Shown here piece after piece: positions 3,149 through 43,311 of a DNA stretch of 64,000 bases. Source of the stretch: an uncultured Candidatus Saccharibacteria bacterium (GTDB taxonomy: Bacteria > Patescibacteriota > Saccharimonadia > Saccharimonadales > Saccharimonadaceae); NCBI GenBank assembly GCA_964485445.1, contig CAZAJJ010000006.1, forward strand, positions 3,321-67,320, read 5' to 3'. The notes beneath the pieces are model-generated. The model was not told where the DNA came from, made no database searches, and saw only the letters and a program-made list of their open reading frames with translations. How positions within the stretch are numbered: position 1 is the first letter of the stretch; the number at the start of each line of letters is the position of its first letter. The position numbers and the translations under genes are program-made.

Positions 3149-3520
3149 ATGGAAGAAAATAAAGAATTTTACACGACGAATCAAGTTTGTGAGATTTTGA
3201 ACGTGAAGAAAGCGTGGCTGAAGAAAGTCCTCAATCGAGGTTTAGTACGCGGAGTGAGGCGAGGCCGAAATCACTACCGGCTGATTAGCGCTGACCAGTT
3301 GGAGCTGGTTCGAACTTTGAAGTATTTAAGCCAGGGAGAAGGTTTTATGAAAGACCTCAAGACCTATGCTGATTTAGAACACAGAGGGAAGGCGGCGGAG
3401 GAAGTCAAGAAGGCTTTTCTGGAAACGAAGAAACGGCAGTTTTGGGAGGAATTGAAGAATTTGCAGGACGCGATTGACCATATTGAGCGAAAAATTGAGG
3501 TAATTGATAAAAATAGCTAA
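3149..3520 (+). CDS. MerR/excisionase-like helix-turn-helix protein with C-terminal coiled coil
   Basis: FYTTNQVCEILNVKKAWLKKVL...HYRLISADQLELVRTLKYL resembles a MerR-type HTH. The ORF-track N-terminal extension (from 2783) overlaps the upstream gene and is discounted. Confidence 0.6.
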   Translation: MEENKEFYTTNQVCEILNVKKAWLKKVLNRGLVRGVRRGRNHYRLISADQLELVRTLKYLSQGEGFMKDLKTYADLEHRGKAAEEVKKAFLETKKRQFWEELKNLQDAIDHIERKIEVIDKNS

Positions 3521-3526
3521 AATGGC

Positions 3527-3560
3527 AAACTGGGTACCGGGTACCCAGTTTGGTGTTTTT
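3527..3560 (+). terminator. Rho-independent terminator (palindrome aaactgggtaccgggtacccagttt + T-run)
   Basis: 11-bp stem and 3-nt loop, followed by ggtgttttt. Confidence 0.7.
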
Positions 3561-3579
3561 CTAACAGGGGTGGAGATTT

Positions 3580-3607
3580 GCAAAAGTGGGTACCGGGTAC
3601 CCACTTT
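3580..3607 (-). terminator. Possible terminator for uvrA (palindrome aaagtgggtaccgggtacccacttt)
   Basis: Sister hairpin of 3527-3551 with a compensatory c/g swap. Short U-run in minus sense. Confidence 0.4.
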
Positions 3608-3742
3608 GAGGTTTTGGGCGGATTCTGAGGCATGGTTTTTGCATTAAATTTAGGTCATAATTTTGAGCTGTTTTTGAGCCTTGAATTTGGGCTTCAATAG
3701 GCCTAGACAGAGCTTTTTGGCTCGCCATTTCGGGCTGAGGAT

Positions 3743-6742
3743 TTAGAGTCCGAGAATTTCTTTCAAATAGCGGCCGGTCGGAGTGTCGGAGCGGCGGGCG
3801 AGGTCTTCGGGAGTGCCCTCGGCGCAAACTTTTCCGCCATGCAAGCCGCCTTCAGGGCCCATGTCGATGACCCAGTCAGCAGTTTTGATGACGTGGAGAT
3901 TGTGCTCAATAATAATCATAGAATTACCACCATCGACCAGACGGCCGAGAATTTCGAGAAGGCGCTTAACATCGTCGGTATGGAGACCAGTAGTCGGCTC
4001 GTCAAGGATGTAGAGAGTCTTGCCGGTGCTGCGGCGCGAGAGTTCGGTGGCGAGTTTGATGCGCTGGGCTTCCCCGCCGGAGAAAGTCGTAGCGGGCTGG
4101 CCGAGTTTGATATAGCCAAGACCGACTTCTTGGAGAGTTTTGAGTTTGGGACTGATGGACGGAATGTTGGCAAAAAACTCAGCGGCTTCGTCGATCGTCA
4201 TGTCAAGGACTTCGGAAATATCTTTGCCTTTATATTTAATTTCGAGAGCTTCGCGATTGTAGCGCTTGCCGTGGCAGGTCGGGCAAGTAACATAGACGTC
4301 GGGAAGGAAGTGCATTTCGATTTTATTGACGCCGTCGCCTTGACAGGCTTCACAGCGGCCGCCTTTGATATTGAAACTGAAACGGCCGGCTTTGTAGCCG
4401 CGGACTTCGGCTTCGGGTTGGCGAGCAAAAAGTTCGCGGATTTGGTTGAAGACGCCGGTATAAGTTGCGGGGTTACTGCGAGGAGTGCGGCCGATTGGGG
4501 ATTGATCAATGACAATGCACTTGTCGAGATATTCGATGCCGTCGATACGTTCGTGGTTGCCAGCGACAGTTTGGGCGCGGTGAAGACGGGCCAGCAACTC
4601 GTTAGCCAAAATGCCATTGACTAAAGTGGATTTGCCACTGCCCGAGACCCCGGAAACAACCGTCATGACTCCGAGAGGAAAACGAACGTCGATATTCTGA
4701 AGGTTGTTTTCGCGCGCCCCCACAACTACGAGGGCTTGATCCTGCTTCGGTTTGCGGCGCTTTTTTGGGACAGGAATAGTCAATTTGCCGGAAAGATATT
4801 GGCCGGTGATGGAATTATCGTTTTTCGCAACTTCTTTAGGAGTGCCGGCAGCAATGAGGTGGCCACCGTTTTTGCCGGCGCCCGGGCCGATATCAATGAC
4901 ATAATCGGCAGCGCGCATGGTATCTTCGTCGTGTTCAACAACTAAAACCGTATTTTTCAGGTCGCGAAGATGTTTGAGCGTAGCGATGAGCTTATCATTG
5001 TCACGCTGGTGAAGGCCGATACTAGGCTCATCGAGAACGTAGAGCACACCTTGGAGGCCGGAGCCGATTTGAGTCGCAAGGCGAATACGCTGAGCTTCCC
5101 CACCAGACAAAGTATTCGCGGCGCGGCCAAGTTCGAGATAGCCCAGGCCGACATCTTGCATAAATTGGACACGTTCGCGAATTTCCTTGAGAATCGGTTC
5201 GGCAATCAGGGCTTCGCTGGCGGAAAAATGAAGATCGTTTTTCAGAACTTCGAGAGTCGCATCGACGTCGAGATTACACATATCGACAATGTTCAGACCA
5301 TGAATAGTCACGGCGAGCACGGCAGGCTTGAGGCGGGCGCCATGGCAGGTTTGGCACTCATGAACACGCATGAAACGCTCGATATCTTTCTTGACAAAAT
5401 CCGAATCGGATTCACGATGGCGACGCTCAAGGGTCGGAATGACGCCTTCGTAGGTCGATTGATAAGTGGCGCCGTTGCCCCATTTGCCATGACCACCGAC
5501 GGCGACTTCGTATTTTTGGTCGCCAGTACCATAAAGAATCTTCTCGATAGCTTCGTCGCTGAGTTCGCGAATCGGCGTATGGACCGAGAAGCCTTCCTTT
5601 TCGCCAACGGCGGCGAGGCGCTTGAGCCACCAAGATTCTTGGTTGATGCGATTGAACGGGCGAATGCCACCTTCAGCGATAGTCAGATTCGGGTTCAAAA
5701 CTAGGCTAGGATCAATTTCCATACGCGTGCCGAGGCCGGTGCAGGTCGGGCAGGCGCCCTGAGGAGCGTTGAAGCTGAACAGGCGCGGCTCGAGCTCAGG
5801 AATCAATTCGTCAGGATGGAGTTCGCAAGCATAGCGCTGCGAGAACGTGTAAATCGTAGTGGCTGATTCCGGTGAATCAATTTTGTCTCGGCCCGCGTCG
5901 ATGACGCCTGCCGTCGCAGGGTCATCGCGCTTAACCTCGGCCGAGCCTCCGGATGACCTCGCAAAATGATTCACCGAAGCAGCCGCTGCGATATTCTTCG
6001 ATTCGATGGTTTTAGTATTATCATTGATTTTTAACAGTTTAATGATGCCCTGACCGAGGTCGAGCGCTTGTTCAACTGAGCCGGAGATGCGGCTGAGCAG
6101 ATCAGGCGAAAGAATGAAGCGATCAACGACAAGTTCGATGTCGTGGCGGTCGTTTTTGTTCAACTCGGGGAACTCGTCAAGGTCATAAACCACGCCATCG
6201 ACGCGCACGCGCGAAAAGCCTTTGGCTTGGTATTGTTCGGAAATGTGTTGGAAACTACCCTTTTTCTGGGTGACGAGAGGCGCGAGGAGCATCAACTTGC
6301 TGCCGAGAGGTAATTTCATGACTTCATTGACAATATCTTCGACGCTGCGGCGAGAAACTTCGCGATGGCAAATCGGGCAATGCGGAACGCCGACCCGAGC
6401 AAAGAGCAGACGCAAATAATCATAAACTTCGGTCACCGTGGCAACGGTGGAACGAGGGTTGCGGCTGGTGGATTTTTGGTCGATGGAAATGGCAGGAGAG
6501 AGGCCAGTGATACTATCGACGTCAGGCTTGTCCATGACACCGAGAAACATGCGGGCGTAGCTGGAAAGACTTTCGACGTAGCGACGCTGACCTTCGGCGT
6601 AAATCGTGTCAAAAGCCAGGCTCGACTTGCCGCTACCAGACAGACCAGTGATAATCACAAGCTTATCCCGAGGAATATCAACGTCGAGATCTTTGAGATT
6701 GTGTTGCCGCGCGCCGCGGACTTTGATGAAATTGTCGTCCAT
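3743..6742 (-). CDS. uvrA: Excinuclease ABC subunit A (UvrA)
   Basis: Two ABC ATPase modules ([18 protein letters not shown]; LSGGE signatures) and CxxC zinc modules. ORF-track start 6781 is TTG. ATG 6742 ([17 protein letters not shown]) matches the UvrA N-terminus and lies 10 nt from a TATAAT. Confidence 0.95.
5895..5930. repeat. 36-nt hairpin-forming repeat inserted in frame in uvrA (copy 1)
   Basis: gcgtcgatgacgcctgccgtcgcagggtcatcgcgc. 30/36 identical to 35022-35057. Encodes RDDPATAGV within a ~45-aa segment absent from E. coli UvrA. Confidence 0.7.
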
Positions 6743-6781: not shown

Positions 6782-6816
6782 GAGTTGAGGGATTATGAAA
6801 ATAACCCTATACTTCC

Positions 6817-6845
6817 ATTATAGCACACATGACTTAAAAAGTCAA
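6817..6845 (-). promoter_or_regulatory. Distal consensus promoter (TTGACT-N17-TGCTATAAT)
   Basis: -35 at 6840-6845, TGC at 6823-6825, -10 at 6817-6822, spacer exactly 17 nt. Confidence 0.7.
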
Positions 6846-6915
6846 TGGTTATTTTTGATTTTCGTCAAGACGACTATTACTACTGCTCATATTACCAAAG
6901 AATACAAATTTTAGG

Positions 6916-8559
6916 CTAAAAATCAGAAGGTTGGAGGCTTTCGTACCAGAGCATAAGTTCTTCGGCGAGAAAGGCGCATTCTTCGGTGGTTTTGTTGCCC
7001 CAAGGGCGGTCGGCGGCGAGGTCTTTTTGAATACCTTGGAGTTCGGCGAGGAATTTGGGAGCCTGGCGGGCGAGGCGAGCGGTGCGATATTGTTCCCAGG
7101 TTTCGACTTCGTCGGCACTAAGACTAGTGGGGAAATTTTTGGCTTTGTAGTGCAGAAGTAATTCGGGAAGGCGAGGGTCGGCGAATTTTGGATGAAAGTT
7201 AGCCAAATCTTCGGCGGTGTTGCTGCGAACGGCGGAGCAAAGCAACTCGTCTTTTTCGGAAAGGAATTCGCCATCATAAACCGCGGACTCAGCATCGACG
7301 GGCTTAGCGAAATTCGTGCCGCGATTCTGGAAAGATTCAGCCATACGGGCGGCAAATTCGGGATGGGCGCGCAAGGCGGCGAGGTTTTTCTCGATGGTGG
7401 CTTGGTCGAGGGAAATCTTTTTCCAGCCATCGGCCTTCTCGAGGACGCCAAGCGGGGCGATGGCGGAGCAATGATTATATTGCAGGACTTTGACAATAGG
7501 AAAGAAATCGGTTGAGGCAGGTTTTTGAGAATCGGCTGAGTTTTTTTCTGGCTCGGCAGACTTTTTCGAGGACCTTGAAGGCTCGACTGAGGGTTCCTGA
7601 GACTGGACAGAAGCGCCTGAGTTCGAGGCGACCTTGGCGGATTCTGAGGACTGTTTTGAGGATTCTGACGGCTGACTGGAAGCGGCTTTTGAACCTGGAG
7701 CGGGCTTTGGATTTTGATAGCGGGCGCGACCGAACTTTTCGGCGTAAGTGCCATCTTGCTCAGCGGCGAGCAATTCATCGAGATTATAGCGTAAATCAAA
7801 AACGATAAGATTACCATTCGGACCTTCAGCGAGCGGATAGGCGACCGTGGTTTTTTCAAACTCCGAAGGATAGCGGCCGGAAGCATAGACGAAGGGCTGA
7901 GGATGGGCGAGGTTAGCGAGTTTGCGGACGGCGGGCTTTTTACGGAGTTCGAAGAGGAAATTAAAAAGTTGAGGCTGTTTCGTTTTAATCAACTTTGTAA
8001 CTTCAATCAAAGCGACGACATCAGCGAGAGCGTCGTGAGCATGCTCGTGAGAGATATGATTAAGTTTAGTCAGAAGCTCAAGGCGGTTCGTCGGCTTGCC
8101 GTCGGGAGTAAAAGGCCACTCGATACCTTCGGGACGTAAAGCGCGAGTCAGACGCACGACGTCGAGCAAATCCCAGCGACTACGGCGATCTTTCCACTGC
8201 CAAGCATAAACGTCATAAAAATTGCGCCACATAGTCGCGCGGATAAATTCATCATCGAAACGGAGAGAGTTGTAGCCCATAATAATCGTCCGCGGAGTGG
8301 CGACTTCTTCGATGAAAAACTTGGCAAAATCGCGTTCGGAGAGACCGTCCTGGCGAGTGGATTGAGGGGTGATGCCGGTCACCATAATGGCAGAAGGGCT
8401 GGGAAGGGTGTCATCGGAAAGTTCAATAAGGAGATTAACCGGCTCGCCGAGAGGACGGAAATTGAGGTCAGTGCGCTGGCCGGCGAACTGCATAATACGA
8501 TCGGCGCGAGGGTTGAGACCGGAAGTTTCGAGATCATAAAAATAAAAACTTTCCTGCAT
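6916..8559 (-). CDS. sbcB: Exodeoxyribonuclease I (SbcB-like DEDDh 3'-5' exonuclease) with low-complexity insert
   Basis: FYFYDLETSGLNPRADRIMQFAGQRTD, RFDDEF, HDALADV and the C-terminal region are collinear with E. coli ExoI. A ~70-aa S/P/E/K-rich insert is encoded at about 7510-7720. Confidence 0.85.
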   Translation of the reverse strand: MQESFYFYDLETSGLNPRADRIMQFAGQRTDLNFRPLGEPVNLLIELSDDTLPSPSAIMVTGITPQSTRQDGLSERDFAKFFIEEVATPRTIIMGYNSLRFDDEFIRATMWRNFYDVYAWQWKDRRSRWDLLDVVRLTRALRPEGIEWPFTPDGKPTNRLELLTKLNHISHEHAHDALADVVALIEVTKLIKTKQPQLFNFLFELRKKPAVRKLANLAHPQPFVYASGRYPSEFEKTTVAYPLAEGPNGNLIVFDLRYNLDELLAAEQDGTYAEKFGRARYQNPKPAPGSKAASSQPSESSKQSSESAKVASNSGASVQSQEPSVEPSRSSKKSAEPEKNSADSQKPASTDFFPIVKVLQYNHCSAIAPLGVLEKADGWKKISLDQATIEKNLAALRAHPEFAARMAESFQNRGTNFAKPVDAESAVYDGEFLSEKDELLCSAVRSNTAEDLANFHPKFADPRLPELLLHYKAKNFPTSLSADEVETWEQYRTARLARQAPKFLAELQGIQKDLAADRPWGNKTTEECAFLAEELMLWYESLQPSDF

Positions 8560-8565
8560 AACTTC

Positions 8566-8574
8566 ATTGTAGCA
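8566..8574 (-). promoter_or_regulatory. Extended -10 (TGCTACAAT) 6 nt from sbcB ATG
   Basis: attgtagca at 8566-8574. ATG at 8559-8557. Confidence 0.55.
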
Positions 8575-8773
8575 GAAAGCGGGAGTTTGGGAAGGGTTAC
8601 GGGGATTATGGGATTTGGCGCTTTGGGCTTTTGATTTTTGGCTGGAGATTCTAGGGTTTCAGAGTTCCAGGCTTTCGGGTTTAGATTGGAGGTTCCGGGG
8701 TTTTGGAAATTATAAGGCAAGAGAAAAGGTTCCGCCGGGAAGGTGGAACCTTGAAAGAAATGTGCGAACCTAC

Positions 8774-9667: not shown

Positions 9668-9762
9668 AAAATCCCTCCTTTTTATGCTTGCGACCCCTTG
9701 TGAGGGGTATTATAGGTTACTTTTAACTGCTGGAGGACTTCGAATCGGGCCTCCTTAATATC

Positions 9763-9791
9763 ATTGTAGCACAGATTGATGAAAATGTCAA
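9763..9791 (-). promoter_or_regulatory. Consensus promoter (TTGACA-N17-TGCTACAAT) for the 8774-9667 gene
   Basis: -35 at 9786-9791, -10 at 9763-9768. The ~90-nt leader contains two hairpins. Confidence 0.7.
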
Positions 9792-9910
9792 TACCAAATC
9801 GAAGATTTTTGGTATTGCTACGGCTTACGTCAGATAGTATGTTTGACAGTAGTGATAAGGCTGCTTGAGATATTTTTGGAGGTTTGAGTATTTTTAGGTG
9901 TTTTTGAGTT

Positions 9911-11032
9911 TTAATGACTGGAAATGACAAGTTGATCGATGATCTCTAGAGCTGCAGCAACGCCATCGCCGGCGGCGGTGATGACTTGTTGGGGAGAGCC
10001 GAGACGAACGTCGCCAGCAGCATAGAGACCAGGAAGGAGAGTAGAATGGGGAGAAATCGTGGAGGAGTCTTGGGCAACAGATTGCGTTATTGCAGACTGA
10101 GTGGATTCTGGAGTAGGATCTTGGGTTGCAGATAGGGCGGTTTGGGGAGTGGAATCTTGAGCGGCATTTTTCCGTAAAACCGTTTGGGTAGCACTGAAGG
10201 CAATAGCCGCCCGAGCGGTGGGTCCAGTTAAAACATAGCCCCGACGATCGAGCAAAGTCAGCCCCTGCGACTGGAGTTCGGAAGCCAAAGGCTGAAGAAA
10301 TTGCGTGATGGGATCACGACCAATAAAGACAAAAACACGTTCAAACTTGTTAAGCAATTCTGGAGTCGGCTCGAGATATTCGCGAACGGAGAGATTAGAG
10401 GTAGCAGAAATTTGGCGCCTAAGAGCATCGACAGCTTTGAGGTGGGAATGAGTAATCAAGGTGACGGAGTGAGCAAAGCGGGCGAGATAGAGCGCTTCCT
10501 GGGCGGCGGAATTGCCGCCGCCCACCACCGCGATATCTCGCCCGCGGCAGAACTCGGCGTCACAGAGCGCACAATAGGAAACTGGGGGCGTAATCGCGAA
10601 ACTGAGAGGGCGCGGTTCGGAACCAGTGCAGACGAGGACGGAACGGGACAGGATAATTTCGTCGTCGATGGTGACTTCGAAGATGGGCACAGGGACGCTG
10701 GAGTCTAATAGCGCGGGATTTGAGGTTCTCGGAAGGCTAGGAGCGCTAGCAGTGCTGGGGCCTGATGATTCCCTGCTACTGACGAGACGAATAGCACAAC
10801 ATTCGCCATAGCGAATCTCGGCGCCGGCGGAGGTGGCTTGGGTTTGCATAATGCGAATGAGTTCAGAAGCGGGACCAGTGAATCCGGGGTAATTAGAGAT
10901 TTCGAAAATCTTACCGAGGTCACCGCCGATGCTAAGTTTTTCGAAAGCCGCAGTTTTAAGCCCAGCACGAGCCAGATACAAAGCAGCGGAAAGCGCAGCG
11001 GGGCCGGCGCCGATGATGGCGACGTCAAGCAC
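9911..11032 (-). CDS. trxB: Thioredoxin-disulfide reductase with two low-complexity inserts
   Basis: IIGAGPAALSAALY FAD motif, redox-active CALC, VVGGGNSAAQEA NADPH motif, LYAAGDV. 373 aa, with S/T/Q/P-rich inserts. Confidence 0.85.
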   Translation of the reverse strand: MLDVAIIGAGPAALSAALYLARAGLKTAAFEKLSIGGDLGKIFEISNYPGFTGPASELIRIMQTQATSAGAEIRYGECCAIRLVSSRESSGPSTASAPSLPRTSNPALLDSSVPVPIFEVTIDDEIILSRSVLVCTGSEPRPLSFAITPPVSYCALCDAEFCRGRDIAVVGGGNSAAQEALYLARFAHSVTLITHSHLKAVDALRRQISATSNLSVREYLEPTPELLNKFERVFVFIGRDPITQFLQPLASELQSQGLTLLDRRGYVLTGPTARAAIAFSATQTVLRKNAAQDSTPQTALSATQDPTPESTQSAITQSVAQDSSTISPHSTLLPGLYAAGDVRLGSPQQVITAAGDGVAAALEIIDQLVISSH

Positions 11033-11733
11033 TAATTAGCGCCTCCGTAGTAAGCAGAATAGAGTTTGAGATAGATTTCATTGAGTTCGGCGGTAAGCTC
11101 GGCGAGTTTTTCGTCGGTAGCAATAGGCATGACAATGAATTTGAGCGGAGAATTAGTTCCACCGCAGATCTCGCGAGATTCGCCGTAAGCCAGAGAGCCG
11201 GCGATGGAAAGTTCGCGGACGCCGCCGAGTTTCATACCGACGACGCCTTGATTCCAGCCTTCGATGAGACCGGCGGAAGCATCAACTGGCGGCTTAAGGC
11301 TGGTCGGATTATCATTGTCATTGAAAGAGGAATCGAAAATCGTACCATCAGCACACCAGCCGATATAATAAGCAGAATAATTAGTATCGCCAGAGGCTAA
11401 TTCCTTGCCGGCGCCGGTTTTAAGATCCTTGGTTTTGAGGCCGTCAGCATTGGCGCTAGCGGCGTTGAAGGATTTAACGTTAGATTTATACTTAGAAAAG
11501 TCACTAAAATACTTATCAGAAAGTGGTTTAGCGGCTTCTTCGAGTTCGGCGGTTTTAGCATCATATTCAGCAGTAAGTTCAGCAATTTGTTGATCATTAT
11601 TAGTAGTACTGCTATTATTGCCATTCATAACAATCAGCATATAGGCGATCATACTAGAGCCGAGTAGTAGTATGGCGACGACGATAATCAGAATGCGAGT
11701 CCAGATGCTAGTTTTTGACGATTCAGTAGGCAT
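11032..11733 (-). CDS. FKBP-type peptidyl-prolyl cis-trans isomerase, membrane anchored
   Basis: N-terminal TM helix. GTIFDSSF...GLIEGWNQGVVGMKLGGVRELSIAGSLAYGE FKBP core. AAGGAGGAA SD. Confidence 0.8.
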   Translation of the reverse strand: MPTESSKTSIWTRILIIVVAILLLGSSMIAYMLIVMNGNNSSTTNNDQQIAELTAEYDAKTAELEEAAKPLSDKYFSDFSKYKSNVKSFNAASANADGLKTKDLKTGAGKELASGDTNYSAYYIGWCADGTIFDSSFNDNDNPTSLKPPVDASAGLIEGWNQGVVGMKLGGVRELSIAGSLAYGESREICGGTNSPLKFIVMPIATDEKLAELTAELNEIYLKLYSAYYGGAN

Positions 11734-14192: not shown

Positions 14193-14209
14193 AGAATCGA
14201 GGTTTCCTA

Positions 14210-14238
14210 TTGACTTTTTTGATTATCTGTGCTATAAT
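14210..14238 (+). promoter_or_regulatory. Orphan consensus promoter (TTGACT-N17-TGCTATAAT) antisense to the pheS-pheT operon
   Basis: -35 at 14210-14215, spacer 17 nt, TGC at 14230-14232, -10 at 14233-14238. No plus-strand gene downstream. Confidence 0.55.
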
Positions 14239-14307
14239 GAAAAGTTAGAGCATATTTCTTTCGAAAATTGGATTTGGGCTGACCTATAGAGATTTTCCCG
14301 TACTGGT

Positions 14308-27560: not shown

Positions 27561-27704
27561 TGCTTTTGATTAACCTTTGGATTTATTTTAGCATAAAGTG
27601 AATGAGTTGGGAGGAAAATTCGGACGGGTAAGGCTGACGATTCAGGATTTACTAGAGGTTTTGAGGCAATTTTTCGGAAAATGGGAGATGTTATGATTTT
27701 TCTA

Positions 27705-27733
27705 TTGACTTTTTATGAAAAGTGTGATACAAT
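27705..27733 (+). promoter_or_regulatory. Promoter (TTGACT-N17-TGaTACAAT) for the plus-strand islet
   Basis: -35 at 27705-27710, -10 at 27728-27733. A ~170-nt leader follows. Confidence 0.65.
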
Positions 27734-27780
27734 GGAGAGATAGGGCTATGTGCTTGACTCTGAAATGACAGGGGGCGGGC

Positions 27781-29383: not shown

Positions 29384-29436
29384 AAATGCCGGCATTCGCG
29401 TTCGGTCGAAACCTTAGGCTAGTCCGGCTTGGTGAT
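29382..29436 (-). ncRNA. Candidate ~55-nt transcript from an orphan promoter
   Basis: Predicted TSS ~7 nt after the -10. Contains a GGU-UUCG-ACC hairpin and GCCGG...CCGGC pairing followed by AUUUUU. Overlaps the NYN stop codon in antisense. Confidence 0.25.
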
Positions 29437-29442
29437 AGTTTC

Positions 29443-29471
29443 ATTATAGCAAACATATCACAAAAAGTCAA
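29443..29471 (-). promoter_or_regulatory. Orphan consensus promoter (TTGACT-N17-TGCTATAAT)
   Basis: -35 at 29466-29471, -10 at 29443-29448. Lies downstream of the alaS stop and points into the 3' end of the convergent NYN pseudogene. Confidence 0.6.
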
Positions 29472-29583
29472 TACTAAAATTTCACGGTAATTGCGTCGCA
29501 AGTAGGCCAGTGGATTGCGCAGATGCTATGATATGGAAAATTCGTGAGCGTTATCAGGCCCGCGCTGAAACGAAGGAGTATGA

Positions 29584-31498: not shown

Positions 31499-31529
31499 TA
31501 GATTTCTAAGGATGGATTCATGTATTTCT

Positions 31530-31604
31530 AGGCACCCGCACGACAGCCCGTCTTTACGGGTGTCGTACTCCGAAATCTTCAGCTTGAAGATTTCTTTAGT
31601 GCCT
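31530..31604 (-). ncRNA. 75-nt structured element (closing stem + two hairpins) upstream of alaS; strand uncertain
   Basis: aggcac/gtgcct closes hairpin cgacagcccgt-cttt-acgggtgtcg (31541-31565) and a 10-bp hairpin gaaatcttca-gct-tgaagatttc (31572-31594). Confidence 0.3.
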
Positions 31605-31698
31605 CTCAATACATAAATTCATCCCCGGTAAGCAGTTAGCGTTCATAGAGCACCATATAATATATATTCATCTCTAGCAAACAGTTGGCGTTTATAGG

Positions 31699-33855: not shown

Positions 33856-34977
33856 TTATTCGACAATAATTCCACCACCAAGACAAATGGCGCCGTCATA
33901 GAAAACAATGGACTGGCCAGCGGCGGGGCGCTTGACATCTTGGTCAAAAAGAATCTCGCAAGACTGAGCGGAAGTCGCATTGAAGCGGGCGGGGAGCAGA
34001 GGAGCGCGGTGACGGAGACGAACTTGAAGATATTCAAGAAGACTAAGTTCGGCGAGCGTGTAGCCGCTACGCAAATGGAGATCAGTCAGAGTTAATTCAC
34101 GAGTCCAAAGGTTAGCATTGTTGAGATTACGAGAAACATAAACGATATTGCGCTCGAGATCCTTCTTTACGACATAGTAGGGCAGGCCGCCGCCGAGATA
34201 GAGCCCATGGCGCTGGCCGATAGTATAGAGAAGCGCACCTTCGTGATAACCTAAAACCTGGTCGGTTTCAAGTTCGCGAATTTCGCCGGGCTCAGTCCTG
34301 AGATAAGTTCGGAGAAAATCTTTCATGCCAACTTCACCGACAAAACAAATGCCCATAGATTCTTTCTTGCTGGCAACATCAAGACCAAAGTTGGCGGCGA
34401 GTTTTTTGACTTCAGGTTTATGCAAATTTGCGAGCGGAAAAATAGTATGGGCGGTCGCCTTGTCGCTCATGCGATAAAGAAAATAAGTTTGATCTTTATT
34501 ATCGTCATCGGCGCGCAAGAGAACGGGCGCGGAGTCGGGGCGAGGCTGAGTGTCGATAGGCAGAAGTTCGCCTTCCGTGGCACCAAGAAAGGCGCTGCCG
34601 GCATAGTGGCCAGTGGCAATAAAATCAGCTCCGCGGGCGATGGCTTGGTCGTAGAAAAGTTTGAACTTGATTTCTTGATTACACATGATGTCGGGATTTG
34701 GAGTGCGACCCTTTTTAAACTCAGAGAGCATGTAATCGACGACTTTTTGCTTATACTCGGCTTGGAAATCCCAGACTTCGAAATCAAGATCGAGTCCGAC
34801 AGCGACGCGCTTCGCGTCGGCGAGGTCTTCAGCCCAAGGGCATTTCATGCCAGGGAGGTCTTCGGACCAATTTTTCATATAGACGCCGGTGACGTCGTAG
34901 CCTTGTTGTTTGAGAAGGACGGCGGAGACTGAGGAATCGACGCCACCAGACATGCCAAGGAAGACTTTTTTATTCAT
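33856..34977 (-). CDS. mnmA: tRNA 2-thiouridine(34) synthase
   Basis: MNKKVFLGMSGGVDSSVSA PP-loop. GGAGG SD before ATG 34977. The ORF-track 67-aa N-terminal extension is discounted. Confidence 0.9.
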   Translation of the reverse strand: MNKKVFLGMSGGVDSSVSAVLLKQQGYDVTGVYMKNWSEDLPGMKCPWAEDLADAKRVAVGLDLDFEVWDFQAEYKQKVVDYMLSEFKKGRTPNPDIMCNQEIKFKLFYDQAIARGADFIATGHYAGSAFLGATEGELLPIDTQPRPDSAPVLLRADDDNKDQTYFLYRMSDKATAHTIFPLANLHKPEVKKLAANFGLDVASKKESMGICFVGEVGMKDFLRTYLRTEPGEIRELETDQVLGYHEGALLYTIGQRHGLYLGGGLPYYVVKKDLERNIVYVSRNLNNANLWTRELTLTDLHLRSGYTLAELSLLEYLQVRLRHRAPLLPARFNATSAQSCEILFDQDVKRPAAGQSIVFYDGAICLGGGIIVE

Positions 34978-35239
34978 AATAATCCTCCAAGAAGCAATCG
35001 TCATCCATCTTTTTTCGGGGCGCGTCGCCGACACCCGCCGTCGCGGGGTCGTCGCGCTCGTTCTCGCCGTAGCTCCGAATCCCCTCAAAAAGAAGATGGC
35101 GATTGCCGCCAACAGTATTACTCTGGAATGCAAAAATTCCGTCAATTGACTGATTGCTTTCTCCAGTGAAATCATCAATGACGTTCTTCCAAAGAACTTG
35201 GCGTTCGGCTGGAGTTACTTTTTGAAGATAAACTTTCAT
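34970..35239 (-). CDS. Hypothetical 89-aa protein between the cysteine desulfurase gene and mnmA
   Basis: ATGA overlap with the upstream stop and an 8-nt overlap with mnmA. Contains the in-frame hairpin repeat ([13 protein letters not shown]). Could be a non-coding spacer. Confidence 0.4.
   Translation of the reverse strand: MKVYLQKVTPAERQVLWKNVIDDFTGESNQSIDGIFAFQSNTVGGNRHLLFEGIRSYGENERDDPATAGVGDAPRKKMDDDCFLEDYYE
35022..35057. repeat. 36-nt hairpin-forming repeat (copy 2 of the uvrA-type element)
   Basis: gcgtcgccgacacccgccgtcgcggggtcgtcgcgc. Two of the six differences from 5895-5930 form compensatory pairs in the stem. Confidence 0.7.
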
Positions 35240-36582
35240 TTTGATGACCTTTCGGCGAGGCGGAGATATTCGTTTCGGACGATGGTGGCGATTTTGGGGG
35301 CGGCGGCGGCGATTTGTTCTTCGGTATTGGTTGGGCCGAGAGAGATGCGGAGGGAGCCGGCAATTTCGGAGTCAGAGAGACCGATGGCGGTGAGGACATG
35401 GGATTTGCTGCCTCTACTCGCGGCGCAGGCAGCGCCAGTTGAGACTAAGATTCCCTCGGCTTCAAGTTTATAGATTAGTCGTTCGGCATCAAGTCCAGGA
35501 AAACAAACAGGGACAAAACTGGTAAGTTGATGTTTAGAGTCGCCAAGGAAAAGGGGTTCGGGGATTTGAAAATGGGCGGTTTTTGAGTCAGAAAGGGCGG
35601 AAGAATGAAGTTTATGCTTGACTTTTTCGGAATTCTGTGCTACAATGGAGGTATCCGAAGAAACTTCGGCTAGGTTTTTGATGGCCTTACGCAAGATTTG
35701 GGCCATTTTTTGATATTCTTTGCGGTGATAGGCGAGATGAGATTTAGCCTCGGAAGCGGCGACGGCAAAACCGATAACGCCGGGGACATTTTCAGTACCG
35801 GAACGCAAACCGTGTTCTTGGCCACCACCGGCAACGAGAGGCTGGAGCGGGACGTGATGAGCGACATAGAGAGCGCCGACACCTTTGGGGCCGCCGCACT
35901 TAGCAGCGCTGATAGTGAGCAGATCAACGCCGAGGCGAGCGACATTCAAGTCAAGCAAAGTGAGTGCCTGAGAAGCGTCAGAATGGAGAAAAAGCGGGAG
36001 TTTGATTCCCTGCCGGAGACGGGACTCGCGAGCAGAACGAATGATTTCGGAAATCTCAGAGAAAGGCTGGATAGTGCCGAGTTCGTTATTGACGAGGGCA
36101 ATAGAGACGAGCGCGACATCATCAGTGAGCTGGGCGCGGAAATCGGCGAGGTTGATGAGGCCAGAAGGTTGGACACGGATGGTTTGGTGAGGATAGGCCT
36201 TGGCGGCGGAAAGGACGGCGGCGTGCTCAGTGGAAAGGGTGAGGAGCCGAGCAGAGGGATAAGCACGGAGGGCAGTGAAGGCGAGGTTGATCGATTCGGT
36301 GGAACCGGAGGTAATGATAAGGTCGGAACCTTTGGCGCCGATAATATGGGCGAGTTGATCCTTGGCGGATTCATAAGCGAGGCGGACATGCTTAGCGGGG
36401 AGATAGGGGGCGGAAGGGTTGAAAAATTCGGCGGAAAAATAGGGCTGCATAGCGGAGAGGGCGCGAGGAGTGACTGGAGTGGCAGCAGCGTGATCGAGAT
36501 AAACGAGATCTTCAGGGGCGGCAAAATTAGCGTCGGCTGAGCGCGGCGCTGAGGGAGTGGGCTGAGGATGCGAATTCGTCAT
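35236..36582 (-). CDS. Cysteine desulfurase (class V aminotransferase, NifS/IscS family) with internal insert
   Basis: LDHAAATP, SGSTESINL, HSDASQ and SAAKCGGPKGVG (PLP-Lys region), plus active-site loop GAACAS. Leaderless-type TATAAT 7 nt from the ATG. Confidence 0.85.
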   Translation of the reverse strand: MTNSHPQPTPSAPRSADANFAAPEDLVYLDHAAATPVTPRALSAMQPYFSAEFFNPSAPYLPAKHVRLAYESAKDQLAHIIGAKGSDLIITSGSTESINLAFTALRAYPSARLLTLSTEHAAVLSAAKAYPHQTIRVQPSGLINLADFRAQLTDDVALVSIALVNNELGTIQPFSEISEIIRSARESRLRQGIKLPLFLHSDASQALTLLDLNVARLGVDLLTISAAKCGGPKGVGALYVAHHVPLQPLVAGGGQEHGLRSGTENVPGVIGFAVAASEAKSHLAYHRKEYQKMAQILRKAIKNLAEVSSDTSIVAQNSEKVKHKLHSSALSDSKTAHFQIPEPLFLGDSKHQLTSFVPVCFPGLDAERLIYKLEAEGILVSTGAACAASRGSKSHVLTAIGLSDSEIAGSLRISLGPTNTEEQIAAAAPKIATIVRNEYLRLAERSSK

Positions 36583-37659: not shown

Positions 37660-38655
37660 TTAAAGTTGGAATATTTTTCTCGCATTTTGAGTAGTTTGCT
37701 CCATAACTAATGATTCTGCCACACCCAATTTCTCCGAGAGACAGCGCGCGATGACGGCGATGTACTCTGGTTTATTTATTGTACCACGGAACGGCACTGG
37801 AGTCAAGAAGGGAGCATCAGTTTCCAGAAGAATGCAATCGAGAGGCGGGAGCGGAGGGGTGGTATAAGTAAGCAGACCATTGACGCCGATGAAAAAATTA
37901 CGAGCAAGGGCGGCTTTGAGGTCTTTTTTGGAGCCAGTGAAGCTGTGGATGACGCCGGAAAGTTCAGGAAAATTGTCGAGAACTGCGAAAGCGTCGGTGA
38001 AGGCTTCGCGGATGTGGAGGGAGACGGGGAGGTGCAGGTCGCGGGCGAGTTGGAGCAGAGATTCGAAAAGGTGGATTTGGGCGGAGCGGGAGTAGCCAGG
38101 GTAATGGTAATCTAAACCGATTTCGCCGATGGCGACAAGATGACCCCCTCCGAGGCAAGCATTATTTTCTCGAGACCCACTCGCCAGCCCGCCTTCATCA
38201 ATAGTTACAGGGCAAGATTCTGGCTGATGATAAACTTTTTTCGTCAAGGTGACGTCGTCAAAATCGAACCCCCTACGGGGGCCGTGATTTTGACAGACGT
38301 CAGCCCGAGGAGTCAAGCTCCATTCCTCAAAAAGTTTATCATCGGCCAGCTTTCCGCCCTGATCACCACTAGCAAAGCGGTCTAAAATGTCGCTTCCGAA
38401 AAGATCATCCTTAGTTAGTTCCCTGACATCGTAATCGTTGGCGAATTCGGGGTGGATGCCGTAGGTCCAGAAGACGTTTTCGTGATTTTGAGAAAAAGCG
38501 GCAGCAGTCTCGGAGTCGGCGGGGTTAGTGCCAATGCAGATGATTTGCTGGACGTTATGAGACGCGGCGGAAACAAGAAAAACAGATTGCTGCTCGGGGG
38601 TGAAAAATTCAGGATCGTGAAGATGGCAATGAGTGTCGATGAGAAAATTACACAT
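37660..38655 (-). CDS. tatD: TatD-family metal-dependent hydrolase with ~75-aa insert
   Basis: DTHCHL, GIHPE, VAIGEIGLDYH, SLHIREA, VIHSFTG and ETDAPFL motifs. The insert lies between the GIHP and GEIGLD motifs. Confidence 0.85.
   Translation of the reverse strand: MCNFLIDTHCHLHDPEFFTPEQQSVFLVSAASHNVQQIICIGTNPADSETAAAFSQNHENVFWTYGIHPEFANDYDVRELTKDDLFGSDILDRFASGDQGGKLADDKLFEEWSLTPRADVCQNHGPRRGFDFDDVTLTKKVYHQPESCPVTIDEGGLASGSRENNACLGGGHLVAIGEIGLDYHYPGYSRSAQIHLFESLLQLARDLHLPVSLHIREAFTDAFAVLDNFPELSGVIHSFTGSKKDLKAALARNFFIGVNGLLTYTTPPLPPLDCILLETDAPFLTPVPFRGTINKPEYIAVIARCLSEKLGVAESLVMEQTTQNARKIFQL
38169..38197. repeat. In-frame repeat in tatD (typA-type element, partial)
   Basis: ctcgagacccactcgccagcccgccttca resembles 40871-40900. 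Encodes GGLASGSRE. Confidence 0.6.
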
Positions 38656-39778: not shown

Positions 39779-41779
39779 CTAATTCCGGGCGGCGCGCTTA
39801 CGCTTGATCGGATCGAGTTCGCGCTTGCGGAGACGGAGAGATTTCGGTGTGACTTCGAGAAGCTCGTCGTCAAGCAAGAAATCAATGCACTGCTCAAGCG
39901 AATATTGGGTATGCGGAGTGAGTTGGATGGCTCCGTCACTAGCATGCGTGCGCATGTTGGTGAGTTGTTTTTCCTTGCAGATGTTAATATCAAGGTCATC
40001 TTTTTTGTTAGAAAGGCCAACAATCATGCCCTGATAAACCGGGACGCCGGGCGGAATGAAGAGGATGCCGCGGGCTTGGGCGGCGTCGAGGGCGTAGGCA
40101 GTAGAAGTGCCGGGCTCAAAGGCGATCAAAGCACCGTTTCGCTCGGGGCGATACTTCCCTTCGACGGGACGATAACCGCTAGGAATTGAAGACATAATGG
40201 CGGTGCCTTTGGTGGCGGTGAGGAGATTATTGCGGAGGCCAATGAGAGCCGCGGTAGTGATATCGTAAGTAAAGCGAGTGCTGCCGGAACCGGTGATTTC
40301 TTGGCTCCTGAGATCGGCTTTGCGGATGCCGAGTTCTTGGCTGACGGCACCAACAAATTCAGGCTCAACTTCGACCGTAAGTTCTTCGACTGGCTCGCAT
40401 TTTTGGCCATCAATTTCTTTATAGACCACTTCAGGGCGACCAGTTTCCAGTTCGTAGCCTTCACGGCGCATGGTTTCAATCAGAACAGAAAGATGAAGTT
40501 CGCCACGGCCAGAAACTTTATAACCGAGACCGTCGGGAACGATTTTGAGAGCGATATTAGTTTCGAGTTCGCGCTCGAGGCGTTCGGCGATTTGGCGCGA
40601 AGTCGTAAATTCGCCTTCTTGACCTTTGAGCGGAGAGGTATTCGGGCCAATATAAATACTCAAGGTTGGCGGTTCGAGTTCGATAGTTGGGAGGGCTTCG
40701 GGATGGTCACCGGTGGCGATGGTGTCGCCGATGTTGGCTTGGGCGATACCCGAGATAGCGACGATGTCGCCGGCTTCGGCAGAATCGACTTCTTCGCGGC
40801 CGAGGCCTTTGTAGGTGAAGATTCGATCTATTTTACCAGTAATCCAAGTCACAGGGGAGACATCTTTGCGCTCGAGAGAACCACTCGCCAGCCCGTCTTC
40901 ACGGGTGTCTCCTTCTGCTCGCTCAGCTTTCGCTCGCTTTATTCTCTCTTGCGCAAAGTCGTCTCCCCCGTCGCTTGCAATGCTAGTAGCTAAGTTAGAT
41001 CCATTCTCCGCCCCAGCAAATTCGCGATCTTCGACCACAGCATCGCTATGCCCGATACGTACGGATTCGCCTTTTTTGAGGCGGCCGCGGAAGATTTTGC
41101 CGATGGCGTATTTGCCGAGATAATTATCAGCAGCGAGAGCGGCAACGAGGAGTTGGGCGCCCTTGCTGGAGTCGGTATCAACACGCGGAGCGGGGATTTC
41201 ATCGATGATGGCGTCAAAAATGACGTGCAAATCAGGGTCAAGATCAGTCGTTTTGCCAGCGCGACCGTCACGAGCGATGGCGTAATAGATCGGATAATTC
41301 AGTTGAGACTCGTCGGTCGCCAGTTCGAGGAAGAGGTCGGCAATTTCACTTTCGACTTCAGGAATGCGAGCGGCGGGTTTGTCGATTTTGTTAATAATAA
41401 CGATGGGCTTAAGTTTCAGGGCGAGAGCCTTTTGGAGGACGAATTTAGTCTGGGGCATGGGGCCTTCTTGGGCATCGACCACGAGAATAACGCCGTCAGC
41501 CATATTCAAAGTGCGCTCGACTTCGCCGGAAAAGTCGGCGTGACCCGGGGTGTCGATAATGTTGATTTTATGGTCTTTGTAAAAAACAGAAGTTTGTTTA
41601 GCGGTGATAGTGATGCCGCGCTCATGTTCCTGGTCCATGGAGTCCATAATGAGGGTCTGGGACATTTCGGCTTGATTGTCACGGAAGGTATGAGATTGCT
41701 TCAAAAGCGCATCGACGAGGGTAGTTTTGCCATGATCGACGTGCGCAATGATAGCGATGTTACGAATGTTATTAGTCAT
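39779..41779 (-). CDS. typA: Translational GTPase TypA/BipA with ~50-aa insert
   Basis: AHVDHGKTT, DTPGHADF and NKID G-motifs. BipA-type C-terminus. The insert (AGAENGSN...EDGLASGSLERK) carries the hairpin repeat. Confidence 0.9.
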   Translation of the reverse strand: MTNNIRNIAIIAHVDHGKTTLVDALLKQSHTFRDNQAEMSQTLIMDSMDQEHERGITITAKQTSVFYKDHKINIIDTPGHADFSGEVERTLNMADGVILVVDAQEGPMPQTKFVLQKALALKLKPIVIINKIDKPAARIPEVESEIADLFLELATDESQLNYPIYYAIARDGRAGKTTDLDPDLHVIFDAIIDEIPAPRVDTDSSKGAQLLVAALAADNYLGKYAIGKIFRGRLKKGESVRIGHSDAVVEDREFAGAENGSNLATSIASDGGDDFAQERIKRAKAERAEGDTREDGLASGSLERKDVSPVTWITGKIDRIFTYKGLGREEVDSAEAGDIVAISGIAQANIGDTIATGDHPEALPTIELEPPTLSIYIGPNTSPLKGQEGEFTTSRQIAERLERELETNIALKIVPDGLGYKVSGRGELHLSVLIETMRREGYELETGRPEVVYKEIDGQKCEPVEELTVEVEPEFVGAVSQELGIRKADLRSQEITGSGSTRFTYDITTAALIGLRNNLLTATKGTAIMSSIPSGYRPVEGKYRPERNGALIAFEPGTSTAYALDAAQARGILFIPPGVPVYQGMIVGLSNKKDDLDINICKEKQLTNMRTHASDGAIQLTPHTQYSLEQCIDFLLDDELLEVTPKSLRLRKRELDPIKRKRAARN
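40871..40909. repeat. In-frame hairpin repeat in typA
   Basis: ctcgagagaaccactcgccagcccgtcttcacgggtgtc. The 5' part matches tatD 38169-38197. The hairpin cagcccgt-cttc-acgggtg matches intergenic 31541-31565. Confidence 0.65.
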
Positions 41780-41787
41780 ATCTATCC

Positions 41788-41816
41788 ATTATAGCACACA
41801 TGGTTATTTTTGTCAA
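41788..41816 (-). promoter_or_regulatory. Consensus promoter (TTGACA-N17-TGCTATAAT) 8 nt from typA ATG
   Basis: -35 at 41811-41816, -10 at 41788-41793, ATG at 41779. Confidence 0.7.
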
Positions 41817-41989
41817 TAGATTTTTGGGATTTTGGGGTTTCAGGGGTGATTAGGTTTCCTTCCTGGGGGTATCGACTGAGGTTTGAAGGCTAGGGGTTTG
41901 GGTTTTTGGAAGGGTTTGAGATTTGGGGGTTAAGTTTTTGGAATTGAGCCCCTTAAATTGGGTTCCTGGAGGCTTGGGGAAATTCTGGG

Positions 41990-42017
41990 TTGATATTTTG
42001 GGGATTATTGATATAAT
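41990..42017 (+). promoter_or_regulatory. Promoter (TTGATA-N16-TGATATAAT) for tRNA-Leu
   Basis: -35 at 41990-41995, -10 at 42012-42017. The tRNA starts at 42032. Confidence 0.65.
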
Positions 42018-42031
42018 GATGGTAGTTCCCT

Positions 42032-42121
42032 GCGCCCGTGGTGGAATTTGGTAGACACGCTACCTTGAGGTGGTAGTGGCGATTTTAAGCTGTGCTAGTT
42101 CGAGTCTAGTCGGGCGCACCA
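42032..42121 (+). tRNA. tRNA-Leu (anticodon GAG), class II long variable arm, CCA encoded
   Basis: Acceptor gcgcccg/cgggcgc, anticodon stem ctacc/ggtag with loop ttGAGgt, 17-nt variable arm, T-arm gctag-ttcgagt-ctagt, discriminator A + CCA. 90 nt. Confidence 0.9.
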
Positions 42122-42126
42122 CACAA

Positions 42127-42149
42127 AAAGACCCCGTGGGGTTATTTTT
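42127..42149 (+). terminator. Terminator after tRNA-Leu
   Basis: Short hairpin accc-cgtg-gggt followed by tattttt. Confidence 0.5.
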
Positions 42150-42194
42150 GTAGGTATTCCTAAGATTATTTGATAGGCTCATATTCTTAAAAAA

Positions 42195-43205
42195 CTAGAA
42201 CTGACGAGAAGAAATATTTGTAAAATGGCTAAACATCCCAGAATTGAGCGATACACTAATTCTATCCATTAACATTGATACTTGATCAGCATCGATTCCT
42301 GCAACATCTAGAAACTCCTTGGCTTTCGCGTACTGCAGTTCGCCAGCAAGATATCCCAAATTAGCTGGTATGTTCTTATTCCTAGAAAAAATGATAACCC
42401 TAGCATCCGGGCTACGAAGGCGCTCCGCTACTAGTTGCCACCAAGTCTGATCCGTTTTGCCTAGAGACATACCGAAGATGCAGATAATATTAGCGTTCGC
42501 GATACGCTTTGCACAATCCTCATCCCGCAGGGTCATACTATTTTTATTCGCGATTGGTTTTATGAGTCTATGCTTTACTCTCTCATGCCTACCTATGTTG
42601 TCACAGCAAACAATTTGCGATGGATTATCCACGCCCAAAATCATATGCTCTTGCGTTGTACCATGTATGTGAGTAATCGAATTCAGGAAGGCATGACTGT
42701 GATTGCTGGAAATCGTCTCTATTGTACCACGCCAGTTATAAAGCCTTTCAAATGTGCTAGTGTAATTAAAGTTAATTACATCAATATTGGTAGGGCCGCC
42801 AATGCGAGCCCTTAGTTTATCGAATGGCGCTCTAGCTCCCCTTGCAAGGAAGAAGTCTGGAGACATGAGGTAATGTATTGCATCATTATCTGGGCGAGAA
42901 TTAGAGGACATAACATTTTTTTGTTGTGAGTTAATGTATTTACCAAGTTCCAAAAGTATATCCATCCATAGCGAGAGATAATCCTCGTAATTTTTATCAG
43001 AAAAATTCTGAGCATATTTACCGAATGACACTTCAAAATCAGACCAGGCTTTATTGTTATTCTTAATTTTATCCAGAAAATTGCGCACATATGGTCGTTC
43101 ATCATTCGTGCGCATCGTGCCATAATATTCATAAAAATCGGTAAATTTCGTACGTAATCCAAGGTTTAGGTCGAAGCCATTGCCTATCATAAAAACGATA
43201 TTCAT
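42195..43205 (-). CDS. AbiH-like abortive-infection protein
   Basis: N-terminus MNIVFMIGNGFDLNLGLRTKFTDFYEYY matches the AbiH family signature (IGNGFDL..GL.T.Y.DF). 336 aa. Confidence 0.7.
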   Translation of the reverse strand: MNIVFMIGNGFDLNLGLRTKFTDFYEYYGTMRTNDERPYVRNFLDKIKNNNKAWSDFEVSFGKYAQNFSDKNYEDYLSLWMDILLELGKYINSQQKNVMSSNSRPDNDAIHYLMSPDFFLARGARAPFDKLRARIGGPTNIDVINFNYTSTFERLYNWRGTIETISSNHSHAFLNSITHIHGTTQEHMILGVDNPSQIVCCDNIGRHERVKHRLIKPIANKNSMTLRDEDCAKRIANANIICIFGMSLGKTDQTWWQLVAERLRSPDARVIIFSRNKNIPANLGYLAGELQYAKAKEFLDVAGIDADQVSMLMDRISVSLNSGMFSHFTNISSRQF

Positions 43206-43211
43206 GCTTCT

Positions 43212-43220
43212 ATTATACCA
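43212..43220 (-). promoter_or_regulatory. Extended -10 (TGGTATAAT) 6 nt from the abiH-like ATG
   Basis: attatacca at 43212-43220. ATG at 43205-43203. Confidence 0.5.
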
Positions 43221-43311
43221 CGAATATTAGCACTCTAGATCAAGATGTGCCAATGCATCCAGTTTTTCTATCTGTGATTACTTTAAAATATATGATACGC
43301 CTTTAATAGAG

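Follow-up and report, generated by a model that had tools for sequence, protein, structure and literature searches.

How did the same short hairpin come to be read in frame in two separate open reading frames (ORFs) of one bacterial chromosome stretch? This question is raised by a 64,000-nt segment of contig CAZAJJ010000006.1 from an uncultured Candidatus Saccharibacteria bacterium (hereafter the window), in which uvrA and a small ORF each carry a 36-nt palindrome. An earlier reading of the DNA, made from the sequence only, had taken these palindromes for an inserted repeat resembling the Rickettsia palindromic elements (RPEs) and had ascribed their compensatory substitutions to selection on the hairpin itself. 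We find that the element is a dispersed palindromic DNA repeat, present across the genomes of a rodent-gut Candidatus Saccharibacteria clade. It is, in our judgment, probably a selfish palindromic DNA hairpin element that is translated and tolerated by its hosts, and that is moved or maintained via single-stranded DNA or template switching at replication forks.

The two 36-mers are identical at 30 of 36 bases and are the only sites in the window matched by a degenerate pattern allowing up to three mismatches (100 shuffles gave an expectation of 0.00). Each forms a 15-bp hairpin that is interrupted by two single-base bulges and closed by a 4-nt loop (-22 to -25 kcal/mol), with fold z-scores of -4.3/-5.4 for the copy in uvrA (copy 1) and about -2.1 for the copy in the small ORF (copy 2). 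Four of the six differences between them make up two double changes from T:A to C:G, at the paired positions 15/24 and 8/30; one of the other two falls in a bulge and one creates a mismatch. The G+C contents of the hairpins are 72% and 83%, against a window mean of 47%. Each copy is on the minus strand, and the two are read in the same frame, as RDDPATAGV. The sequence-only reading had thus placed and described the two hairpins correctly, including their bulged fold, the two compensatory pairs and the common frame. A terminator reading of copy 2 was rejected, there being no U-run after the hairpin on either strand, and so was a CRISPR repeat, since the two copies lie 29 kb apart inside ORFs and no CRISPR-like array was found at the window copies.

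Self-complementarity runs on beyond both 36-mers, giving palindromes of 113-140 nt. The alignment with copies from elsewhere delimits a conserved unit of about 94 nt, made up of an outer stem, an asymmetric arm of about 24 nt, and the 36-nt hairpin. Of the earlier description, the palindromic repeat therefore stands and its size of 36 nt does not, as the unit measures about 94 nt, to which each copy adds a palindromic extension of its own. The outer stem has a loose consensus in which T-rich...GAGG pairs with CCTC...A-rich, and the asymmetric arm has no pairing partner and occurs in two subtypes, GGTCATCCGGAGGCTCGGCCGAGGYTAA in uvrA and GGWTTCGGAGCTACGGCGAGRAYKA in the small ORF. Segments of 129 nt from the copies fold at -56 to -80 kcal/mol. 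The covariance model built from nine copies (R1), used with default filters, detected no family-1 copy in the window beyond these two (Table 1). In the region of copy 1, contig depth goes up and contigs branch at ~5887/5904 to 5951/5967.

The 89-codon ORF hosting copy 2, about 40 codons of which are palindrome, is wedged between the gene of a NifS-like cysteine desulfurase and mnmA, overlapping the stop of the former (ATGA) and the start of the latter (ATGAATAA). It had no Pfam match, and searches for proteins identical to the product of the small ORF or to MnmA returned no record. Its homologues form only two clusters, with the element in both, and the frame is still open in the orthologous locus L016. 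It is uncertain whether this ORF is a real gene.

A strict pattern scan over one genome per species (185,579 species) gave eight matches, seven of which are in uncultured Candidatus Saccharibacteria genomes, one of these with a copy on each of two contigs. The remaining match, from a GC-rich Phenylobacterium (L011), was rejected as a chance match without likeness outside the pattern. A looser pattern retrieved 22 metagenome contigs, 21 of which fit the full 94-nt model; the other one (L036) failed the covariance model and was likewise discarded as a chance match. Taken together, the full-length matches number 33 (23-107 bits) and are spread over about 28 distinct sites, so that the covariance model and the collection scans bear out the expectation of further copies beyond the window. 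A core of about 60 nt, asymmetric arm included, is 85-100% identical across these unrelated sites, which refutes a coincidental likeness of the family-1 copies. All identifiable hosts are Candidatus Saccharibacteria from rodent-gut samples, and the public runs with window DNA are rat and mouse gut metagenomes, with no RNA run among them. Four metagenomes with the window organism have 4-11 contigs each that are alike in the core and continue into different flanks, and the window's own contigs break at the element in the public-run assemblies. No copy was found among 2.9 million viral contigs, Rfam gave no match at gathering or permissive thresholds, and we found no earlier description of such elements in Saccharibacteria or Patescibacteria in the open-access literature.

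More than half of the element sites are inside genes: at least 15 sites have hosts assigned by Pfam and context, and about 11 further sites are intergenic or uncertain. The element is read in frame +0 in UvrA, LeuRS (two sites), PriA, ValRS, PheT, a BipA-like GTPase, TatD and PolA (linker), and in frame +1 in PriA (a second site), TatD and a membrane protein. It is read from the opposite strand, as ASPTPAVAGSARFTSAEP, in IleRS (two sites) and a UPF0020 methyltransferase. Three readings of the same element DNA are thus in use, in both orientations relative to the gene, and because three frames are used it is the DNA, and not the peptide, that is conserved; a conserved peptide module was rejected on this ground. 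The in-frame colonization of genes after the manner of RPEs, which had been proposed from the two window copies, extends accordingly to other, unrelated housekeeping genes, namely LeuRS, ValRS, IleRS, PheT, PriA, PolA, TatD, the BipA-like GTPase and the methyltransferase. Inserts are often located at domain boundaries, and in LeuRS the insert stands in place of a 5-residue connector of the Thermus enzyme. One IleRS gene (L020:1164-4571, 1136 aa) has three separate inserts, namely a full family-1 copy at residues ~111-142, an insert of about 40 residues near residue 560 that is missing from L025, and a diverged copy of about 70 residues near residues 782-850, at which site L022 has an intact copy.

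We compared the 120 closest UvrA orthologues, which are 85-90% identical. Most of them have no insert between INDNxTTIE and YTFSQRYAC, and the rest carry an extra 38-48 residues at this same spot, in at least six dissimilar peptide types, so the relatives do not all have the peptide, as they would if it were ancestral sequence. The in-frame insertion before YTFSQRYAC, already noticed in the window sequence, amounts to 38-40 residues relative to the closest insert-free orthologues, and a codon-level comparison with the empty alleles L039 and L040 places the extra DNA at ~5861-5989 (38-40 codons). Residues 236-299 of this UvrA face about 10 residues in solved UvrA structures, with the insert aligning between chain residues 255 and 266 of one of them. 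An AlphaFold2 model from a too shallow alignment of 39 sequences has a mean predicted local distance difference test score of 35.6, and no statement on the loop rests on it. The DNA of five of the insert types forms in each case a long near-perfect hairpin (110-140 nt, -72 to -100 kcal/mol). The covariance model recognizes two UvrA insert types as diverged relatives of the element (45 and 23 bits); types B and C are long hairpins without detectable similarity to it. A neighbor-joining tree of the 120 UvrAs with the insert masked is star-like and cannot show whether the insert types correspond to clades.

Empty and filled orthologues were also seen for PheT, which has the element in L004, an unrelated insert in L013, and no insert in L014, L039 and L040. 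In PheT of L013 (3456-5987), the site used in L004 holds an insert of about 30 residues, rich in A/K/T/P and with little hairpin potential, which may be a decayed copy. In TatD, the same loop is occupied by the element in both L021 and L026, in different frames and subtypes. Besides, TatD and the BipA-like GTPase of the window have palindromes of a second family (family 2), distinct from family 1 though related to it, at the exact sites of family-1 copies in other genomes. Certain protein sites are used repeatedly, and it could be that only these sites tolerate inserts or that newer variants overwrite old ones.

The sequence surrounding the conserved unit gives a clue to how such palindromes are formed. 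Flanks outside the 94-nt model are self-complementary, with a mean duplex energy of -19 kcal/mol for a copy's own pair vs -10 kcal/mol for cross-copy pairs, and for half of the copies the flank duplex energy is below the 5th percentile of the cross-copy control. The sequence of these outer arms is specific to each copy. For the LeuRS insert, the codons that specify the universally conserved I-E-V-F of EVFTTRPDT make up one outer arm, and the reverse complement of this arm is found at the opposite edge; as the arm covers conserved host codons, it was not brought by the element but made to match the host. The same was observed in the UvrA insert of the window type for the codons of the conserved T-T-I right of the insert. 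A direct target-site duplication was not found at any copy, the flanks being reverse complements of each other.

The orientation of the copies follows a strand rule. With the top strand defined as the one reading ...RDDPATAGV..., and with GC skew as a proxy for the direction of replication, the top strand coincides with the locally C-rich strand at 26 of the 28 sites; among the 18 sites with |GC skew| >= 0.1 there is no exception (p about 3e-6). The rule holds with the host gene on either strand. The skew itself goes with the DNA strand rather than with the direction of coding, given that genes on opposite strands show opposite coding-strand skew, and it reaches up to 0.5-0.8 at third codon positions. 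An orientation locked to skew is what one would expect if insertion or retention were governed by the strand that the fork leaves single-stranded or newly synthesized. As for the polarity of this asymmetry, the third-position coding-strand skew in the window and in L007, L010, L020, L022 and L025 is -0.3 to -0.67 for minus genes and +0.2 to +0.67 for plus genes. The C-rich strand carries about 27 of the 34 long ORFs in the window, an unusual arrangement should the leading strand be the G-rich one.

We propose a theoretical scheme in which a hairpin of single-stranded DNA at the replication fork would move the element and keep its arms complementary. The nascent strand would fold back or switch template, by which the core would be copied from another copy, and neighboring host sequence would then be copied in inverted form, making the stem 'zip' outwards. 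Such fold-back or template-switch synthesis would account for both the outward growth into the flanks and the strand rule. Copies would survive only where the frame stays open and a hydrophilic loop is tolerated, i.e., at a domain boundary or on the surface, and the encoded peptide itself would have no selected function.

The mobilization step of this scheme, and this step only, might instead be carried out by a dedicated hairpin-recognizing HUH/Y1 transposase of the IS200/IS605 or RAYT type, for which the bulged hairpin and the asymmetric arm would be the binding or cleavage signals. Elements of the IS200/IS605 family have an orientation tied to replication, and the orientation seen here is tied to a replication-related strand skew. 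The GC-rich imperfect hairpin with its bulges kept across 33 copies, and a core far more conserved than its surroundings, also agree with recognition by such an enzyme. Nevertheless, we regard its involvement as a serious but less likely alternative, because no such gene is present in the loci examined (the genomes were not searched for one), repetitive extragenic palindromic sequences (REPs) are typically located outside genes, and no conserved 5' tetranucleotide such as GTAG is common to both subtypes in the alignment, judged by eye. Moreover, enzymes of this kind insert without palindromizing the flanks, so that the copy-specific stem extension would need a second process.

In the 33-copy alignment, which was fitted to the model structure and thus biases pair counts somewhat towards it, 96.5% of the stem cells are paired, vs 81% in column shuffles and 37-51% with slid partners. 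Changes on both sides were seen in 18 of 25 stem pairs, a number reached by none of 500 shuffles, and one-sided changes are nearly absent from the two main helices; all eight outer pairs vary with double changes. The 725 stem cells of the two main helices comprise 694 Watson-Crick pairs, 10 G:T, 6 A:C and 15 others. Selected RNA stems usually change by way of G:U intermediates. Here no G:U excess is seen, and some copies are antisense to the host gene, which together suggests that complementarity is maintained at the DNA level. Template switching has been documented to make perfect stems and multibase compensatory changes (PMC8794818), and the stem covariation may come from arm-to-arm templated DNA copying, in which case it would be mutational rather than selective. 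The compensatory changes reported in the sequence-only reading are thus real, but they do not prove selection on the hairpin, since Watson-Crick double changes without G:U excess fit DNA arm copying.

If the hairpin were an RNA structure selected in the mRNAs, e.g., as a signal for processing, stability or translation pausing, the covariation would reflect selection on RNA folding. The very stable predicted hairpins, the strength of the covariation, the conservation of the core above the flanks, and the frequent position of inserts at domain boundaries, where pausing could matter, all go along with this idea. We consider it improbable given the pair counts above (10 G:T vs 6 A:C vs 15 other among the 725 cells), the copies located in spacers or antisense to their host gene (IleRS, methyltransferase), an orientation that tracks strand skew and not transcription, and the lack of a match in Rfam.

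The core is conserved beyond its surroundings even between orthologous copies. Between the nifS-mnmA copies of the window and of L016, the core is ~95% identical, vs 65-70% for the surrounding ORF and 68-72% for the neighbor proteins, and the outer stem has changed at three positions, each of them mirrored in the other arm. A core more conserved than neighbor genes, with an extreme orientation bias relative to strand skew, could also be an orientation-dependent DNA site used by the host, following the logic of Chi, KOPS or REPs and bacterial interspersed mosaic elements (BIMEs), which is kept by selection and for which the in-frame location is incidental. This is quite improbable in our view, since close relatives lack the element at the same sites with no visible replacement, different lineages have several unrelated hairpins at one and the same site, and a 94-nt palindrome in essential genes would be a costly binding site. 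We know of no protein that binds it.

A purely local template-switch origin of each hairpin in permissive loops, with coincidental or convergent similarity between copies and no mobile element, can draw on the ability of template switching to make perfect hairpins (PMC8794818) and on the long hairpins of UvrA types B and C, which are unlike the element. It is highly improbable, however, as the ~60-nt core with its non-palindromic arm recurs at about 28 sites where none is expected by chance, and the multi-copy scans refute it for family 1. An artefact of assembly or amplification in metagenome-assembled genomes is hardly credible as the source of the palindromes, for although contigs built from short reads break at the element, independent assemblies from ENA, NCBI, JGI and Logan contain the same in-frame insert, and orthologous copies differ by point changes and keep the host frames. 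Considering all this, we conclude that an RNA structure, a polarized host site, a purely local origin and an assembly artefact each fit worse than the template-switch reading.

On the other hand, several observations weigh against a selfish element that is moved or maintained at the replication fork. A strong conservation of the core is not predicted for purely neutral selfish DNA, and needs protein recognition, ongoing conversion between copies, or recent spread. Most window genes lie on the C-rich strand, and GC skew serves here as a proxy for the direction of replication. The ancestral arm is clear for LeuRS and ambiguous for UvrA type D and PheT. The recurrent sites could represent old insertions overwritten by newer variants and not new insertions. 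In the assembled contigs, to which the data are confined, we detected no transposition event, excision allele or within-population empty/filled polymorphism, and the contigs (not reads) of public runs have no joints that skip the element. Translation through the element is predicted from open frames, and the search for a mobilizing enzyme covered the loci examined.

The selfish-element reading can be extended to a more specific hypothesis, which we offer tentatively and regard as possible rather than probable. In this hypothesis, the element would be a replication-strand-polarized, self-extending palindromic DNA, its core being copied by template switching at the fork without a transposase, zipped outwards by fold-back copying of the flanks, and kept uniform via conversion between copies, and it would repeatedly write loops of 30-50 residues into the same permissive sites of essential proteins. 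If true, self-extending palindromes would be a general source of lineage-specific protein insertions in bacteria of the candidate phyla radiation, with a possible link to the unusually strong strand asymmetry of these bacteria.

The other features of the window include further palindromes, for which the coordinates are given in Table 1. The family-2 copies in TatD and in the BipA-like GTPase share a 26-nt core (24 of 26 identical) with the protein sequence EDGLASGS[LR]E, and the BipA-like and intergenic copies share a 24-nt stretch (22 of 24) with a small hairpin, CCCGT-RAAG-ACGGG. This hairpin resembles the centers of UvrA insert types D and E. Relative to their L039 and L040 orthologues, ExoI (6919-8658) and a TrxB-like protein (9914-11035) have S/P/A/Q-rich low-complexity inserts of 26-59 residues, which are not palindromic (fold z -0.9 to +1.5), so not every lineage-specific insert here is of the element kind.

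Table 1. Coordinates of the two family-1 copies, their host ORFs and other repeats and motifs in the 64-kb window.
Feature	Position	Strand	Basis or remark
uvrA host gene, 999 aa from ATG, intact either side of the insert	3743..6742	-	Pfam UvrA_inter and UvrA_DNA-bind; solved UvrA structures at E = 0, match split at the insert
Copy 1, inner 36-nt bulged hairpin	5895..5930	-	Within UvrA; coding-strand loop GACG
Copy 1, full conserved element, family 1, subtype 'GGTCATCCGGAGGCTCGGCCGAGGTTAA'	5875..5968	-	Covariance model R1, 104 bits, E = 5e-29
Copy 1, whole palindrome in uvrA, ~140 nt, copy-specific arms	5853..5992	-	Fold, -72.8 kcal/mol
89-codon ORF hosting copy 2	34970..35239	-	Open reading frame
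Copy 2, inner 36-nt hairpin	35022..35057	-	Pattern match and fold
Copy 2, full conserved element, family 1, subtype 'GGATTCGGAGCTACGGCGAGAACGA'	35002..35094	-	Covariance model R1, 100 bits
Copy 2, whole palindrome, ~113 nt, copy-specific outer arms GCAATCG.../...CGATTGC	34994..35106	-	Fold
Intergenic palindrome with third family-2 hairpin (CCCGTAAAGACGGG, ~31527-31564)	31500..31625	.	Repeat comparison
Family-2 long in-frame palindrome in TatD (37660-38655)	38190..38365	-	Same protein site as family-1 copies elsewhere
Family-2 in-frame palindrome in BipA-like GTPase (39779-41779)	40834..40988	-	Same site as the family-1 copy in L031
Recurrent ~40-nt motif	6809-6848, 9755-9794, 14199-14251, 27694-27746, 29435-29474, 35607-35647, 41780-41819, 51054-51093, 59290-59329

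Three side observations concern the rest of the window. The stretch at ~42000-48000 has no GC skew and a lower G+C content, and includes genes for an AbiH-like abortive-infection protein (42198-43226), an 844-aa protein without Pfam match, and an Eco57I/MmeI-type methyltransferase (46387-47958); the stretch probably represents a defence island that was acquired. A motif of about 40 nt, TTGAC(T/A)-N17-TGTGCTATAATG, recurs before genes on either strand and resembles an extended -10 promoter of high uniformity. Downstream of uvrA, two adjacent near-perfect palindromes on GGGTACCGGGTACCC with flanking A/T runs occupy the spacer (3519-3615) and could be a bidirectional terminator or another small repeat.

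The element can be compared with several known systems. The coding palindromes of nematomorph mitochondria (PMC6649704) are also long near-perfect inverted repeats within coding genes, apparently translated, in which structure and coding are kept together; there, both arms encode conserved protein and are gene-specific, whereas here a shared mobile core forms extra loop sequence and only the outermost arms are host codons. Quasipalindrome template-switch mutation (PMC8794818) explains perfect stems, multibase changes free of G:U and outward growth, but it is a local process that alone does not explain a core of 60-94 nt common to unrelated loci. With the REP/BIME sequences associated with RAYT and with IS200/IS605 elements, the element has in common that the unit is a short, imperfect, GC-rich hairpin, that copies are numerous and dispersed, and that orientation is biased in relation to replication. 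The 36-nt hairpin falls within the 20-40 nt of a GC-rich imperfect palindrome by which REPs are defined, and the orientation bias characteristic of IS200/IS605 is present with GC skew as its proxy. REPs, however, are extragenic, are defined together with a RAYT gene and a tetranucleotide, and insert without palindromization of the flanks. [quoted passage not shown] The present element resembles them in its small size, lack of coding capacity, inverted termini and many copies. It differs in having no direct target-site duplication, flanks that are inverted copies of each other, terminal arms that appear not to be conserved between copies, and no parent insertion sequence known or seen in the loci examined; the outer stems share only the loose consensus given above. 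The definitions of MITEs and REPs each fail at a tested feature, because direct target duplication is lacking and the location is intragenic.

Protein-coding palindromic repeats have so far been treated as a peculiarity of Rickettsia and its close relatives. According to PMC1779305 and PMC10969869 (with Ogata et al. 2000, 2002 as summarised there), RPEs are palindromes of 100-150 bp that are dispersed over spacers and also lie in frame within housekeeping genes, among them PheT. The two systems are alike in having dispersed palindromes of ~100 bp in a small host-dependent genome, both in spacers and in frame, PheT as a host in both systems, several families, lineage-specific presence and no known transposase. 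The 94-nt unit, the 113-140-nt palindromes with their long hairpins, the 33 copies, and the occurrence in frame in genes as well as in spacers all agree with how RPEs are defined. Their host and sequence do not: the Saccharibacteria element is found in an unrelated phylum of the candidate phyla radiation and not in Rickettsiales, and has no apparent sequence relationship to RPE-1 to RPE-10, whose profiles were not scored. It is also shorter and GC-rich in a genome of 47% GC and is used in both orientations, and it is thus an analogue of the RPEs and not a member. To our knowledge, the use of three frames, the palindromization of flanks, the skew-locked orientation, and recurrent sites with different variants have not been reported for RPEs.

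An independent, sequence-unrelated case in a reduced, host-dependent lineage suggests that protein-coding palindromes arise generally where genomes are small and spacers few. This case offers many recent near-identical copies together with empty and filled orthologues, and the skew-orientation rule, the Watson-Crick-only evolution of the stem and the palindromization of flanks are clear enough that the mode of movement of such elements, long an open question, can be put to the test. In practice, short-read assemblies break at the elements, and marker proteins such as UvrA, the aminoacyl-tRNA synthetases and PolA seem more diverged than they are. Among the systems compared, the RPEs are the nearest parallel, reached in a different phylum with a different sequence.

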